Source: an uncultured bacterium (GTDB lineage: Bacteria; Patescibacteriota; Minisyncoccia; Phycocordibacterales; GWA1-40-21). Taken from it: a DNA stretch of 48,913 nucleotides. Of the stretch, positions 45,171 through 48,800 are shown in pieces. The position numbers were made by a program, and so were the translations under genes. Location of the stretch: contig CAIJUJ010000029.1 of assembly GCA_903823865.1 (NCBI GenBank), positions 1 through 48,913 of the forward strand, given 5' to 3'. The stretch's first letter is position 1. Every line of letters begins with the position of its first letter. The notes beneath the pieces were generated by a model, which saw only the letters and a list, made by a program, of their open reading frames with translations, did not search any database and had not been told where the DNA came from.

Positions 45171-48100
45171 TTACTCCAAAAGCAACCTGGCTTTTAGTCC
45201 ATCAAGTTCAATAAGTTCTCCTTCCTCCATTTTTTCAAAAGTTATTTCTTTCAAACCAGTAGCTTTTGAAATTTCTTTATCAAATTTTTCAAAGATATTT
45301 TGGCCTGCTTTGTCTGTGTCAATGACAAGACCAACCAAATCTCCTGGATTTAATTTCTTAGCTTTTCTCATTTCTTGAATTGCACGAACAATATCGCGCA
45401 TAATTCCCTCTTCTTTTAGCTCTGGGGTAATATTTGAATCGAGCAAAACATCAGTTTCAATATTTTTATCAAAAATTATTTCTTTTACATTAACTTCTGC
45501 TTTAATCAAGTCAAAATATTCTGCGTTTCCTTTCAATTTTTCACTTTTTACTTTCAAACTTGCAAGTGGTTGTCTTACTTTTAGCCCAGCTTTCGCACGA
45601 GCTTCAAGTCCAATTGAAACAACGGCTCTCGTTTCTTTCATTTTTTCTAAAATATCAGCTTCTGCTTTTCCAAGTTCACCAACGAGATTGTCAGGCCAAT
45701 TTTCCAAATGCACACTTTCCTTTTCCATCCCTCCGGTGATTTTTAAATACAAATCTTCAGCAAGAAAAGGCATTGATGGCGCTAAAAGTTTTGAAAATTC
45801 AAAAATTACGGTTTTTGTTGTAAACATTGCAGAATTTCTATCTTCTACATCTTCAGATTTAAATCTGTCTCGTGACCTTCTCAAAAACCAAGTTGAAAGG
45901 TCATCAACAAAATCAGCGATTGGTCTTGTCGCTCTATCTAGCTCGTGGTTGTCTGTAGATTTTGTGATTTGTGTCGCGGTTTCTTTAAGTCGTGCAAGTA
46001 TCCATTTATCTAAAATGCCGTGCCCTGTAGTGAGCTTTGCTCTACTACCGGGGTTTTTTGACTGGTCTTTTTGTACATCTTTCAAATCAAAACCTCCGTA
46101 CATTTCAAAAAATGAATAAACATTTTGTAATCTCATAATAATTTTTTTCAAAACTTCATCAACAAACTTGCTTGAAAAAGCTACATCTTCTGCTTTTACC
46201 GATGGAGAAGAAAGAATAGAATATCTAAATGCATCAGCACTATAAGTCGATATGACATCCATAATCTCTGGATAATTTTTCAAACTTTTTGACATTTTTT
46301 TACCATCTTCAGCAAGCATCATCCCGTTTACAACAACACTTTTGTATGATGGCTTACCAAAAAGTGCGACAGAAAGTACAAGCATTGAATAAAACCATCC
46401 TCTTGTTTGATCCACCCCTTCTGCGATAAAATCTGCTGGAAAACCAATTCCTTTTTCTGGATTAAATGTATCTAAATTTTCAAATGGATAGTGAGACTGC
46501 GCATAAGGCATTGAGCCAGATTCAAACCAACAATCAAAAACTTCTGGAATTCTTTTCATTTCTCCTCCACAAAAACATTTCAAAGTTATTTCATCAATAA
46601 ATGGCCTGTGCATATCAAGCTCGTAATTTCTATTGTGTGGAATAGGCGCAAAATCAAGTTTTTTTATTTCAGAATTTTTTATGAATGGTTTTCCCGCTTC
46701 TCTTATCGCCATTGCCTGCTTTGGTGTCAAACCGTTTGCCCCAGAAAACATCAGCCAAATTGGAGTATTGTGAGAAATAATCAAAATATTTTTGTCTTCG
46801 TTTTTTGCATTTGCTTCATACAAAAATTCTGTCATTCTGTTTTTAACAGTCGTATAATTTTCTCCACCTTCAGGAGTTTTTGTAAATTTAGCTTCTCGAG
46901 ATTCAAAAAACGCTTGATATTCTACATCCGGTTTGCCATCAAGCACACCGACAAATATTTCGTGCAATCTTTTATCATAAACTATTTTATCTTTTGGAAA
47001 ACCAATTTTTTCTGCAATAATTTCGGCGGTCTCCTTTGTCCTCAAAAATGGCGAGCAATAAATAACATCTATTTTATTTTTCAAAAGATTTTCTCCGGCA
47101 ACTTCAGCTTGTTCTTTACCATTTTTGGTCAAATGATGTTTTGTTTTTGGATTTGAGCTGAGAATTCCGAGAATATTACTTTCCGCTTCACCGTGTCTAA
47201 CAATGAAAAAATTATTTCCTTTGCTTGTTCTCTTTTTTATATCATCGATTGAACCAATGAATTCTTTTTCTGGGCAACAAGCACATTTCCAGACTGGAAG
47301 TGGTGCTCCCCAAAATCTACTTCGAGAAATTGCCCAGTCACGAGCGCCTTCAAGCCATTTTCCAAATCTTCCATCACCCACTTCATATGGAACCCAGTCA
47401 ATTTTTTTATTTGCTTCAACTAATTTGTCTTTAATTTTTGTAACCTCAACAAACCATGAGCTTGTCGCGTAATTTAACAGTGGTGTATTGCATCTATAAC
47501 AGTGTGGATATGGGTGTATAAATTTTTCTTTTGCATAAAGCGTTCCTTCTTTTGCTAAATGTTTAATAATTTGGATATCGGCTCGTTGTGGATCTTCTAT
47601 CGGTTTTACTTTTTCTCCAGCAAAACCTTTTACTTCAGCTTTAAATAGGCCATCCATTCCAACATGTTGAATAAATGGTAATTTTTTCTCTTTTCCAAGA
47701 TTCATATCGTCTTCTCCAAATGCAGGTGCGATGTGAACAATTCCTGTTCCATCTTCTGTTGTAACAAAACTTGCATCATAAACCTTGAAACCATTTTCCC
47801 TATTTTTTAATTCACTATTATCATAAAAGTTAAAAAGAGGTTTGTATGAGAGACCAACCAAAGCTTTTCCTGCAGTTTTTTCAACAATTTTATATGGTTC
47901 TTTAATTGTTAAAAGTCGTGATTCTGCCAAAATAAATTTCTCTTCTCCAATCAAAATTTTTACATAATCAATGTCTGGATTTACCGCCAAAGCCACGTTG
48001 CCAGGAAGAGTCCACGGGGTGGTCGTCCAAGCCAAAAAGAACGTTTTTGGCCCTGCCCCGTTAGAAGTAGCGCTTGCCGCGTCAGTTCTGATGGGGTCGT

Positions 48101-48800
48101 CTAAAAGCTCAAATTTGGCCGTTATAGAGATGTCAGTAATGTCCTTGTATCCTTGAGCAACCTCAAAATTTGAGAGGGTTGTACCGCAATGTGGACAAAG
48201 ATGCATAGATTTGAAACCTTCATAAACTAGGCCTTTTTTGTGCAATTCTTTAAAAATCCACCAGACAGTTTCGGTGTATGTTGGGTTCATCGTTCTATAA
48301 TCATTTTCCATATCAACAAAACGCCCAGTTCTTGGAATTATTTTTTTCCAGTCGTCTGCATAAGTAAAAATTTTTGTTCTTGCTAAATCGTTGAATTTTT
48401 CTAAACCAAAATCTTCAATATCTTTTTTAGATTTTAATCCTATTTCTTTTTCAACAATGTTTTCAATTGGAAGACCGTGTGTGTCCCAGCCCCATCTTCT
48501 TGCAACATGCTTGCCTTTCATTGTCTGATACCTGCCCATGTAATCTTTCATTGTTCCGGGAATAATATGTCCATAATGTGGAAGTCCGGTAGCAAATGGA
48601 GGGCCATCATAAAAAACATATTCGCCCTTTGGTGCATCTTTTTCTAAAGATTTTTTAAAAATCTCTTTTTCTTGCCAAAATTTTAAAATTTCCTCTTCTC
48701 TTTCAGCGGTAGAACTTTTCTTTACGGCAGTTTTGCCTGCCTGCGCAGGCAGGCTTTTTGTTATAGGGTTTTTACCCTTTTCTTGTTTTGGATTTTTCAT
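45171..48800 (-). CDS. ileS: Isoleucyl-tRNA synthetase (type 2) with an inserted histidine-phosphatase domain
   Basis: YDGPPFATGLPHYGH, GWDTHGLP, WTTTPWTLP, DWAISRSRFWG, FIAEGVDQTRGWF and KMSKS; RHG domain at about aa 528-717. Confidence 0.95.
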   Translation of the reverse strand: MKNPKQEKGKNPITKSLPAQAGKTAVKKSSTAEREEEILKFWQEKEIFKKSLEKDAPKGEYVFYDGPPFATGLPHYGHIIPGTMKDYMGRYQTMKGKHVARRWGWDTHGLPIENIVEKEIGLKSKKDIEDFGLEKFNDLARTKIFTYADDWKKIIPRTGRFVDMENDYRTMNPTYTETVWWIFKELHKKGLVYEGFKSMHLCPHCGTTLSNFEVAQGYKDITDISITAKFELLDDPIRTDAASATSNGAGPKTFFLAWTTTPWTLPGNVALAVNPDIDYVKILIGEEKFILAESRLLTIKEPYKIVEKTAGKALVGLSYKPLFNFYDNSELKNRENGFKVYDASFVTTEDGTGIVHIAPAFGEDDMNLGKEKKLPFIQHVGMDGLFKAEVKGFAGEKVKPIEDPQRADIQIIKHLAKEGTLYAKEKFIHPYPHCYRCNTPLLNYATSSWFVEVTKIKDKLVEANKKIDWVPYEVGDGRFGKWLEGARDWAISRSRFWGAPLPVWKCACCPEKEFIGSIDDIKKRTSKGNNFFIVRHGEAESNILGILSSNPKTKHHLTKNGKEQAEVAGENLLKNKIDVIYCSPFLRTKETAEIIAEKIGFPKDKIVYDKRLHEIFVGVLDGKPDVEYQAFFESREAKFTKTPEGGENYTTVKNRMTEFLYEANAKNEDKNILIISHNTPIWLMFSGANGLTPKQAMAIREAGKPFIKNSEIKKLDFAPIPHNRNYELDMHRPFIDEITLKCFCGGEMKRIPEVFDCWFESGSMPYAQSHYPFENLDTFNPEKGIGFPADFIAEGVDQTRGWFYSMLVLSVALFGKPSYKSVVVNGMMLAEDGKKMSKSLKNYPEIMDVISTYSADAFRYSILSSPSVKAEDVAFSSKFVDEVLKKIIMRLQNVYSFFEMYGGFDLKDVQKDQSKNPGSRAKLTTGHGILDKWILARLKETATQITKSTDNHELDRATRPIADFVDDLSTWFLRRSRDRFKSEDVEDRNSAMFTTKTVIFEFSKLLAPSMPFLAEDLYLKITGGMEKESVHLENWPDNLVGELGKAEADILEKMKETRAVVSIGLEARAKAGLKVRQPLASLKVKSEKLKGNAEYFDLIKAEVNVKEIIFDKNIETDVLLDSNITPELKEEGIMRDIVRAIQEMRKAKKLNPGDLVGLVIDTDKAGQNIFEKFDKEISKATGLKEITFEKMEEGELIELDGLKARLLLE

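Follow-up and report, generated by a model that had tools for sequence, protein, structure and literature searches.

In-frame insertions of tiny GC-rich hairpin elements in the ileS gene of an uncultured patescibacterium

Three GC-rich hairpins translated within ileS are probably recent and tolerated insertions of tiny inverted-repeat elements that carry no gene, two of them possibly derived from longer terminal-inverted-repeat elements whose ends are shared by MITEs and by cassettes encoding a GIY-YIG nuclease. The window analysed is a stretch of 48,913 nt. Its genome is referred to as G000; G005, G010, G014 and similar handles denote other genomes among the 201 of the order.

Insertions in ileS and recO

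The features considered first are the following.
45171..48800, minus strand: ileS, encoding a type-2-like IleRS of 1209 aa; the sole ileS of the genome
48715..48753, minus strand: site-1 insertion, net 39 nt, boundaries within 3 nt either way
48052..48096, minus strand: site-2 insertion, exactly 45 nt, no target duplication, coding strand CCCCATCAGAACTGACGCGGCAAGCGCTACTTCTAACGGGGCAGG
46018..46053, minus strand: site-3 insertion, 36 nt when compared with the closest relative and 27 nt against most others, coding strand CCCCGGTAGTAGAGCAAAGCTCACTACAGGGCACGG
43370..43426, minus strand: recO insertion, 57 nt, in-frame, GC-rich (0.67), multi-hairpin, coding for SPTRAVGSPTESSVAKGVG

A preliminary description of this DNA reported three palindromes translated in-frame within ileS, and all three sequences were found where it had placed them. 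The first (48735-48754, GCCTGCCTGCGCAGGCAGGC) is indeed a perfect 20-bp palindrome, coding for LPAQAG, and its half-site CCTGCCTGCC is present at 10351-10360; the second and third turned out to be imperfect hairpins. Hairpin 2 (48056-48096) has the arms CCCCGTTAGAA and TTCTGATGGGG, with Watson-Crick pairing at 9 of 11 positions, and codes for PIRTDAASATSNGA just before LAWTTTPW. Hairpin 3 (46023-46053) forms a stem of 12 bp, interrupted by a single mismatch and a single bulged A, and codes for PGSRAKLTTG.

An alignment of 20 IleRS sequences (G000 and 19 orthologues, the closest relative having 91% amino acid identity) reveals lineage-specific in-frame insertions of 39, 45 and 36 nt at sites 1, 2 and 3, respectively. 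All three segments are missing from every informative orthologue, including the rest of the genus: the peptides face gaps of 13, 15 and 9-12 residues, which rules out the gapless alignment that the preliminary description had named as refuting its proposal. The closest relative allows a clean comparison of filled and empty sites. The inserted DNA has 56-62% GC in a gene of 33% GC. Site 1 adds (S)LPAQAGKTAVKK to the N-terminal tail, past the start codon that relatives share, and consists of an 18-nt palindrome, the family-A core CCTGCCTGCGCAGGCAGG (48736-48753), and about 21 further nt with a small hairpin, GGCAAAACTGCC, and an imperfect flank repeat of about 12 nt. Site 2 belongs to the CCCGTTAGAA...TTCTAACGGG family, forms a nested hairpin, codes for PIRTDAASATSNGAG and lies 6 residues upstream of the WTTTPW editing motif. 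Site 3 codes for PGSRAKLTTGHG in a variable linker ahead of the anticodon-binding domain; the bulged A of its hairpin is conserved and is accompanied by a CARG-like tail on the 3' side.

Since this ileS is the only one in the genome and the catalytic and editing motifs are intact (HIGH, in the form HYGH, at residue 75; KMSKS at 835; WTTTPW at 258), we infer that IleRS with the three added segments is active. The enzyme does not need them, as the relatives show: neither the 91%-identical orthologue nor any other in the genus has the segments. The idea that the segments occupy surface loops gained indirect support. Against the solved IleRS 8c8u, gaps fall exactly at sites 2 and 3, and in an AlphaFold model (14-sequence alignment, mean pLDDT 59, pTM 0.39) sites 1-3 are positioned between secondary-structure elements at pLDDT <50, as low as much of the catalytic core. 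These data hint that the three sites may be in loops.

The ileS gene of G000 contains 3 hairpin insertions, whereas the count over the whole genome predicts 0.13 (Poisson P = 3e-4); for the recO-hisD-ileS stretch the figures are 4 observed and 0.20 expected (P = 5e-5). The recO segment, rightly counted as a fourth case in the preliminary description, is absent from the closest relative, and searches of G000 and of that relative turned up no second copy. Independent insertions occur in ileS of other genomes: a family-A element (GLPAQS) and a second insertion at the site-1 position, with an imperfect flank duplication of about 21 nt, in G010; a family-B element (VHEKSADLVA) in G014; and a different hairpin occupying site 2 in G021.

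It is extremely improbable that artefacts of the metagenome bin, introduced in assembly or amplification (for instance through chimeric or fold-back reads), account for the segments. An untrimmed TruSeq adapter at the contig end and the breakage of several contigs of the assembly at palindromes would fit such an origin, but all three segments are in frame, are multiples of three and lack stop codons, and the families recur in independently assembled genomes in the same reading frames.

Dispersed families and reading frames

Each of the three hairpins represents a separate dispersed family, with copies at other loci of G000 and in other genomes, which bears out the earlier proposal that several families of tiny hairpins enter an essential enzyme in-frame and create new peptide. 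Perfect GC-rich hairpins (stem of at least 7, GC of at least 0.7) number 65 in G000 vs. 3-6 in local shuffles. The 9-mer CCTGCCTGC has 19 copies, with about 0.5 expected from composition by our own arithmetic, and reversed-pattern controls for each family gave no match in any of the 201 genomes. Comparison with the closest relative yields 37 indels of 5-20 aa specific to G000; 16 of these are GC-rich hairpins, as compared to 1 of 28 relative-specific indels and 1.4% of random coding segments.

Family A comprises palindromes of the form CCTGCCTGC..GCAGGCAGG, 18-45 nt long and set apart from the elements of hairpins 2 and 3. Its 18-mer occurs in 20 of the 201 genomes and 17 genera, with up to 13 copies per genome at non-homologous sites, and the coding insertion is exactly 18 nt. 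The site-2 type is present in 25 genomes and 21 genera, with up to 20 copies, likewise at non-homologous sites, and its inner stem covaries. A near-identical 39-mer of hairpin 2 lies at a non-ileS locus of the congener G005; G000 itself has no close copy, the nearest relatives being the ends of two MITEs of about 120 bp. The site-3 type was detected in 8 of the 201 genomes at non-homologous sites, and its 31-mer in 106 stretches over many CPR lineages and classes in a species-level genome collection. Of 80 loci of this 31-mer, about 67 are intergenic, and the majority of family-A and family-B copies are coding. In general, the elements measure 18-57 nt, are found almost solely in Patescibacteria records and are scattered over numerous unrelated genes as well as intergenic DNA, terminator loops among them. 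IMG/VR yielded the site-3 31-mer on only one contig and family B on none. For families A and B, neither a parent element nor an enzyme was identified.

The near-identical copies elsewhere also decide against palindromes of purely local origin, arising by template switching or slippage at quasi-palindromes with no mobile family involved, and a local de novo origin of the hairpin cores was rejected on this ground. Imperfect flank duplications (about 12 nt at site 1, about 21 nt in the independent G010 insertion) speak for this explanation, but the GC content of the insert departs from that of the gene and the copies, in G000 as in other genomes, occupy unrelated loci; we regard it as having next to no chance of being correct. 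Local duplication could, on the other hand, be the source of the extra flank repeat at site 1.

The preliminary description also suggested a test for frame bias, which was confirmed in part. One frame dominates in three cases: LPAQAG is read in 20 of 21 family-A coding copies, though all three frames are open, HEKSADLV in 6 of 6 family-B coding copies, and P(I/V)R(T/I)..TSNG in the site-2 subfamily in 7 of 7 genomes. The frame in use is the one that contains no Cys or aromatic residues and at most one Arg. Coding site-3 31-mers use all four open frames, so the restriction is not universal. Where the bias exists, it would result from purifying selection on the peptide.

Could the hairpins be kept in ileS for a function, either as an mRNA or DNA structure (pausing, stability, termination control) or as a useful peptide? 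The strong use of a single frame and the conservation of the peptides LPAQAG and PIRT..TSNG across genomes could mean peptide selection; there is covariation in the inner stem of the site-2 family, site 2 is close to the editing motif, and other species have independent insertions at sites 1 and 2. On the other hand, IleRS of the congeners, the 91%-identical one included, lacks the segments, and the same elements reside in unrelated genes, intergenic DNA and terminator loops. An Rfam search gave no match at the three ileS hairpins, only sub-threshold hits at the hisD/ileS terminator region. Hairpin 2 folds better antisense than in the mRNA (predicted folding energy of -26.7 vs. -14.9 kcal/mol), both of its mismatches being G:T on the plus strand, which is antisense to ileS. 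We therefore consider a retained function highly improbable.

According to the preferred reading, that of tolerated mobile insertions, tiny GC-rich inverted-repeat elements would insert into ileS with a tolerant loop or tail as the landing place. The copies retained would be those whose length is divisible by three and whose frame gives a small, Cys-free, non-aromatic peptide. The insertions would have survived because of these three conditions, and IleRS would then simply be made with three extra loop segments.

Longer inverted-repeat elements and routes of movement

Two longer elements in the window are relevant here.
4944..5079, no strand assigned: MITE, 136 bp, TIRs CCCCGTAGTAGATTTTGACAT and CCCGGTAGTGAATTTTGACAT, TAAAA target duplication
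34290..34582, plus strand: cassette, 293 bp, TIRs CCCGTTAAAGTTTTTACTAA and CCCGAGAAAATTTTTACTAA, TAAA duplication

The site-3 arms are the outer TIR ends of seven MITEs of about 107-139 bp and of a 317-bp cassette (C4:4799-5115). In the MITE at 4944..5079, the outer 11-12 nt of the TIRs equal the site-3 hairpin arms, including the extra-A asymmetry. The C4:4799-5115 cassette carries a GIY-YIG ORF and recurs at a different locus in G010 as well as in G062 and G150. The target duplications of the MITEs are ATAA, CAAA, CAAA, TAAAA and TTGA, and those of the 117-120-bp MITEs are of the TGA(A) type. Both parent families (107-139 and 117-120 bp) thus have the TIRs, target duplications and size (70-300 bp) of MITEs, whereas the ileS hairpins are 18-45 nt long and have no target duplication.

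The sole ORF of the 34290..34582 cassette (34319-34528) encodes a 91-aa GIY-YIG nuclease, one of six small GIY-YIG genes in G000. It is a candidate for the enzyme class that moves CCCG-ended elements. Another cassette, on C8, came to light only in a local scan for inverted repeats; it has the TIR TCCCGTTAGAGATA, a TTCA target duplication and a 99-aa GIY-YIG protein, and its end TCCCGTTAGAG.. matches the site-2 family ends over 9-10 nt, the tenth base being different. Such cassettes are generally about 280-320 bp long, with a 3-4-bp target duplication and a single gene for a stand-alone GIY-YIG nuclease of about 96-99 aa. The shared CCCG(G/T)TAG.. ends hold for sites 2 and 3 only and not for site 1 (family A). 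No element of GIY-YIG size bounded by the exact site-2 ends (CCCGTTAGAA-N275-305-TTCTAACGGG) was found in the 201 genomes.

Hairpins 2 and 3 may accordingly be pictured as minimal "two-ends-only" derivatives of TIR elements with ends beginning CCCG(G/T)TAG, which also bound the MITEs of about 120-140 bp and the GIY-YIG cassettes of about 280-320 bp. A tentative suggestion, somewhat less likely to be right than wrong, is that the ends serve in trans as substrates of the GIY-YIG nucleases. A broader proposal is more doubtful: CPR bacteria might harbour an unrecognised DNA transposon whose sole protein is a catalytic-domain-only GIY-YIG nuclease of about 96 aa and whose TIRs start with CCCG(G/T)TAG... 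Its derivatives would shrink from MITEs of about 140 bp to "two-ends" hairpins of 27-45 nt, which would persist mainly through translatability and add loops to essential proteins. With little intergenic space, hairpins would be kept only in the one frame giving an innocuous loop peptide.

No consistent target motif or duplication was found at the coding insertions; GA precedes many copies but not all, and two insertions have imperfect flank repeats of 6-12 nt. Unlike MITEs and cassettes, the mini-hairpin insertions in ileS and other coding sequences mostly lack a 4-bp target duplication. Since, in addition, family A inserts as exactly 18 nt, the mini-hairpins may enter by another route.

One such route would be that of REP- or PATE-like hairpins moved by a Y1 HUH transposase (IS200/IS605 or RAYT type) acting on single-stranded hairpins instead of a GIY-YIG enzyme. 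The coding insertions are precise and without target duplications, as in single-strand peel-and-paste transposition and as IS200/IS605 derivatives (PATE) require, and the imperfect hairpins with conserved bulges resemble IS200/IS605 ends. Genes for IS200-type Y1 transposases (PF01797) are found in 118 of 201 genomes, more often in hairpin-bearing ones (33 of 41 vs. 85 of 160, P = 0.0014, odds ratio 3.6, with no correction for genome size or phylogeny); this enrichment favours the rival enzyme. G000 has one intact IS200-type TnpA gene between GC-rich hairpins. However, it is the only PF01797 gene there, the hairpins beside it are unlike any family described here, and the ends of our elements do not resemble those of the resident IS. 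There is no PF01797 match in G010, with its 13 family-A copies, nor in G005 and G060. The insertions have no fixed target, that is, no conserved adjoining motif of 4-5 nt, and no GTAG or CGTC tag. On balance, movement by a Y1 enzyme seems unlikely.

Significance and comparison with known systems

About 40% of the recent medium-sized insertions in G000 are GC-rich hairpins, and if the preferred reading of tolerated insertions holds, selfish hairpin DNA measurably adds new loops to essential enzymes in streamlined CPR genomes (about 90% coding). Segments of the LPAQAG, HEKSADLV and PIRT..TSNG type in CPR proteins should then be treated in annotation and alignment as element scars, not as homologous features. 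The ends common with GIY-YIG-only cassettes offer a concrete handle on how REP-like elements lacking a dedicated transposase are moved, a question left open by Di Nocera et al. 2013 (PMC3733652). Our literature search found no paper on these CPR families, on GIY-YIG-only TIR cassettes or on their link. The general kind is already known from Rickettsia palindromic elements (RPEs), intragenic REPs and mitochondrial GC clusters.

Intragenic GTAG- and CGTC-tagged REPs are palindromes of 20-40 bp, some wholly inside ORFs, including tRNA synthetase genes (Di Nocera et al. 2013, PMC3733652), and CGTC REPs have no dedicated transposase (PMC3733652). The families described here share with them the 20-40-bp stem-loop dispersed in many copies. 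They differ in that no GTAG/CGTC (TGTC/CCTC) tag flanks the three ileS hairpins or 29 family-A copies, the A-T pairs that open CGTC stems are missing from the ileS elements, the end left unpaired consists of a CARG tail (CCTGCC.. in the complementary strand; RCARG/CARG at the 3' side of the site-2 and site-3 families), and no RAYT/Y1 gene in G000 is flanked by the same repeats. Family A was weighed as a CGTC REP because of the shared CCTGCGCAGG core and of C15:371, which resembles a REP/family-A chimera, and was rejected, as neither its tag nor its stem follows the rules of that class. True CGTC-1/dRS3-like REPs (GTCATTCCCGCGCAGGCGGGAATC) are also carried by G000.

Yeast mitochondrial GC clusters are GC-rich palindromes of tens of bases in an AT-rich genome (Wu and Hao 2015, PMC4478555). 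Like the elements studied here, they proliferate, diversify, merge and pass between species with no gene of their own, but they are organellar and mostly intergenic. GC clusters are not known to share their ends with a parent element that encodes a nuclease.

Bacterial MITEs, e.g., Correia/NEMIS and RUP, can be in-frame inside genes (review PMC10969869). The parent families, gene-less and about 120-140 bp long with 20-bp TIRs and a 4-bp target duplication, have the ordinary MITE form. The ileS hairpins are far smaller (11-12 bp per TIR, a loop of 3-19 nt, no target duplication), and the putative autonomous partner codes for a GIY-YIG nuclease, not a transposase of the DDE or Y1 type. Among free-standing homing endonuclease genes of the GIY-YIG type are seg and mob of T-even phages, where a small GIY-YIG nuclease is likewise the only gene of a selfish cassette. 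Homing genes are not known to have bounding TIRs, target duplications or miniature gene-less derivatives. Moreover, homing enzymes possess a DNA-binding domain, which the proteins of about 96 aa lack.

RPEs were reportedly described by Ogata et al. in 2000. RPE-1 is roughly 100-150 bp long. RPEs lie in-frame within ORFs likely coding for functional proteins (PMC3733652). The three ileS insertions and the family copies elsewhere are likewise in-frame palindromic repeats in genes that stay intact. The resemblance extends to dispersed palindromes in a small AT-rich genome, translated in-frame in essential genes, with several families per genome and no transposase of their own. The elements differ in their length of 18-57 nt, in the CPR host and in that two families share ends with GIY-YIG elements having TIRs and target duplications; by size and host, they fall outside the RPE-1 to RPE-10 class of Rickettsiales, to which they are presumably unrelated in sequence. 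By analogy, the ileS case can be viewed as a miniature version of the behaviour of Rickettsia palindromic elements.

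Hairpin insertions in ileS

The window is contig C29 of a 677-kb genome (G000; 33% GC, 35 contigs) with only one copy of ileS. Pfam recognizes in its product a class I synthetase core, an anticodon-binding domain and, within the core, a histidine-phosphatase domain; the HIGH, KMSKS and WTTTPW editing motifs are all intact.

Features of ileS in the window
45171-48800, minus strand: ileS, 1209 aa
46710-47207, minus strand: histidine-phosphatase domain, IleRS residues 532-697
48715-48753: hairpin insertion, site 1
48052-48096: hairpin insertion, site 2
46018-46053: hairpin insertion, site 3

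The preliminary description reported three palindromes translated in-frame within this gene. Three hairpin sequences are confirmed at correctly placed coordinates, but only the first is a perfect palindrome (20 bp), the second and third being imperfect hairpins. The site-2 hairpin has 9 of 11 Watson-Crick pairs and, since both exceptions are G:T on the plus strand, folds better antisense (-26.7 kcal/mol) than in mRNA (-14.9). The site-3 hairpin has a 12-bp stem with one mismatch and one bulged A. One predicted junction peptide of the IleRS insertions is FELLDDPIRTDAASATSNGAGPK. Perfect GC-rich hairpins number 65 in the genome versus 3-6 in shuffles, an approximately 13-fold excess.

IleRS genes were gathered from 30 relatives, and 20 of these were aligned. 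Against the closest relative, G003 (IleRS 91% identical in amino acids), there is a net gain of 39 nt at site 1, exactly 45 nt at site 2 and 36 nt at site 3 (27 nt versus most other orthologues). The three segments are insertions present in no other orthologue of the 20-sequence alignment. Sites 1 and 2 are occupied by other insertions in G010 and G021, respectively, and elsewhere in ileS there is a GLPAQS element of family A, the LPAQAG palindromes of site 1, in G010 and a VHEKSADLVA element of family B, the HEKSADLV hairpins, in G014. In the alignment with the solved type-2 IleRS 8c8u, gaps fall exactly at sites 2 and 3, which a low-confidence model places between two beta strands and between two helices, respectively. 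At the level of the assembled sequence, the proposed in-frame insertion of small hairpin elements into an essential enzyme is supported, once two of the hairpins are described as imperfect and site 1 as composite.

Flanking codons are imperfectly duplicated at site 1 (~12 nt in G000, 48715-48735; ~21 nt in G010 ileS), with ..KS..A repeated. These are independent N-terminal events, and the other coding insertions are without flank duplication. The histidine-phosphatase (PF00300, E = 1.4e-33, RHGE motif) is a complete domain of ~200 aa inserted in the catalytic core, where 8c8u passes directly from residue 479 to 485. It is conserved, as all orthologues of the order are in the same length class, and is the best-predicted part of the IleRS model (pLDDT ~90). 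The contig end (48845-48913) is an Illumina TruSeq adapter, one A short of AGATCGGAAGAGC, an artefact of assembly or trimming with no biological meaning.

Repeat families and their reading frames

Each ileS hairpin belongs to a dispersed family of its own, with copies in G000 and/or other genomes. In G000, family A (CCTGCCTGC..GCAGGCAGG; 18, 24, 33 or 45 nt) sits in genes and terminator loops at nine or more positions; G003 has it at five, only one of them apparently common to both. It occurs in 20 of the 201 genomes compared from the order. Family B (CCACGAAAAGTCTGCTGACCTCGTGG) has five copies in G000, every one in a long ORF, and none in the G003 genome. The site-2 hairpin is a member of the CCCGTTAGAA...TTCTAACGGG family (25/201 genomes), whose inner stem shows covariation from genome to genome (GCG/CGC vs GGA/TCC) around a constant GCAAG loop. 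A 39-mer with four differences from it lies in a different gene of the congener G005. Families A and site-2 co-occur by genome (odds ratio 8.4, P = 1e-4). The site-3 hairpin, found in 8/201 genomes, recurs nearly unchanged, with bulged A and CARG tail, at C31:6780 and C27:59887 of G000. In a species-level collection its 31-mer matches 106 stretches, and the organisms named are almost all Patescibacteria (lineages Saccharibacteria, Kazan, Berkelbacteria, Paceibacterota and other CPR). It also lies on contigs labelled uncultured Gammaproteobacteria, Nitrospira sp. and Pacearchaeota archaeon (L129, L153, L154, L176, L181, L182), which could reflect mis-binning or real transfer.

Comparison of the whole G003 genome with G000 (478 orthologous ORF pairs, 148,740 aa) revealed GC-rich hairpins (GC >=0.5, dG <=-10) in 16 of 37 G000-specific internal indels of 5-20 aa, in 1 of 28 G003-specific ones and in 1.4% of random coding segments. 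Filled and empty sites are clean, mostly without target duplications. Three of the 16 insertions are in ileS, where 0.13 were expected; the clustering described earlier, four with recO in 6 kb, holds for the recO-hisD-ileS stretch (0.20 expected).

Frame bias turned out to be family-dependent. Among perfect family A copies inside ORFs of >=140 aa in four genomes (n=21), 20 read LPAQAG, with all three palindrome frames open. Family B reads HEKSADLV in 6/6 copies (5/6 frames open), and the site-2 subfamily reads P(I/V)R(T/I)..TSNG in 7/7 genomes (4/6 open). The frame used by these three is always without Cys or aromatics and has at most one Arg. The site-3 31-mer lacks such a bias: approximately 67 of its 80 loci lie in intergenic DNA or at the edges of ORFs, and coding candidates are spread over all four open frames. 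We ascribe this bias to purifying selection acting on the loop peptide; insertion in a specific phase may instead be its source.

Other repeats were also noted. A 330-aa ORF (C14:13201-14190, minus strand) contains three separate hairpin insertions: NLPAQAG, common to G003, and two that G003 lacks, a double hairpin of 57 nt (NPVKYPLKADPSEAGFNRV) and LLRQKATDGQT (33 nt). Another hairpin family, ATCCCCGAGG-N-CCTCGGGGAT, occurs at C9:1453, C22:22189 and window 26001-26025, the last close to the 5' end of a stop-to-stop ORF of 564 aa and perhaps upstream of its true start. A CGTC-1/dRS3-like REP family, GTCATTCCCGCGCAGGCGGGAATC(C/T)AG, is abundant across G000 (73 half-sites), often as inverted doublets ~45 bp apart; the C15:371 copy looks like a chimera with family A. 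Several contigs begin or terminate precisely at GC-rich palindromes (C8:1-25, C13:1796-1817, C22:29214-29232, C23:11999-12019), so these repeats break assembly.

Examples of the CGTC-1/dRS3-like REP in G000
C8:37355-37384
C23:1459-1530
C27:28733-28812

Possible origin from GIY-YIG elements

A family of MITEs in G000 (gene-less TIR elements; seven copies, 107-139 bp) has TIRs whose outermost 11-12 nt make up the two arms of the site-3 hairpin, and the difference between the two TIRs is that between the arms (GTAGTAGA vs GTAGTGA). Clear 4-5-nt duplications flank five of the seven (ATAA, CAAA, CAAA, TAAAA, TTGA). These TIRs also enclose a 317-bp element (C4:4799-5115) with a single ORF, which encodes a GIY-YIG protein of 96 aa (Pfam E = 1e-17). 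The same cassette occurs in G010, where its locus differs (duplication CATA), in G062 (TCAA) and in G150, the latter two from other families of the order. A second G000 cassette (~C8:9552-9833; TIR TCCCGTTAGAGATA, duplication TTCA, 99-aa GIY-YIG) has its first 9-10 nt in common with the site-2 family and two ~120-bp MITEs (C34, C23). Two more GIY-YIG genes lie in 281-293-bp cassettes with TIRs starting CCCG and duplication TAAA, and a fifth (C8:37402-37623) is bracketed by a pair of inverted CGTC-type REPs.

GIY-YIG features
C4:4877-5089: GIY-YIG gene of the 317-bp cassette
C8:9607-9810: GIY-YIG gene of the second cassette
Window 34290-34582: GIY-YIG cassette, one of the two of 281-293 bp

Two of the three ileS hairpins, sites 2 and 3, have ends in common with MITEs and GIY-YIG cassettes and so resemble CCCG-ended TIR elements reduced to their ends alone; the autonomous form of such elements likely encodes a small GIY-YIG nuclease and nothing else. 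We infer this origin from sequence comparison; against it, the in-gene mini-hairpins are without the 4-bp duplication and family A has no such cassette partner. Y1 transposase could instead be the mobilising enzyme, as genomes bearing the elements are likewise enriched in its genes, although some of these genomes lack them. G000 itself has a single intact IS200-type Y1 transposase (C33:31469-31831, minus strand; 138 aa, HVH and Tyr motifs) with imperfect, GC-rich hairpins on either side, and PF01797 genes, mostly of a ~220-260-aa form, occur in 118/201 genomes of the order.

Relation to known systems

Full-text literature searches returned no description of these families in Patescibacteria or of GIY-YIG cassettes that are bounded by TIRs and have MITE derivatives. 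Di Nocera et al. (2013; PMC3733652) reported REPs of 20-40 bp wholly inside ORFs, including tRNA synthetase genes. The same work identified RPE-4 and RPE-6 of R. conorii as CGTC REPs and dRS3 of Neisseria as CGTC-1, and stated that no transposase is dedicated to CGTC REPs. Wu and Hao (2015; PMC4478555) described mobile and merging GC-rich palindromes in yeast mitochondria. Insertion of small palindromes within genes is therefore a known kind of event. The three ileS elements nevertheless conform neither to the GTAG and CGTC REP superfamilies in their tags nor to MITEs in size and duplication, which sets them apart as a variant.
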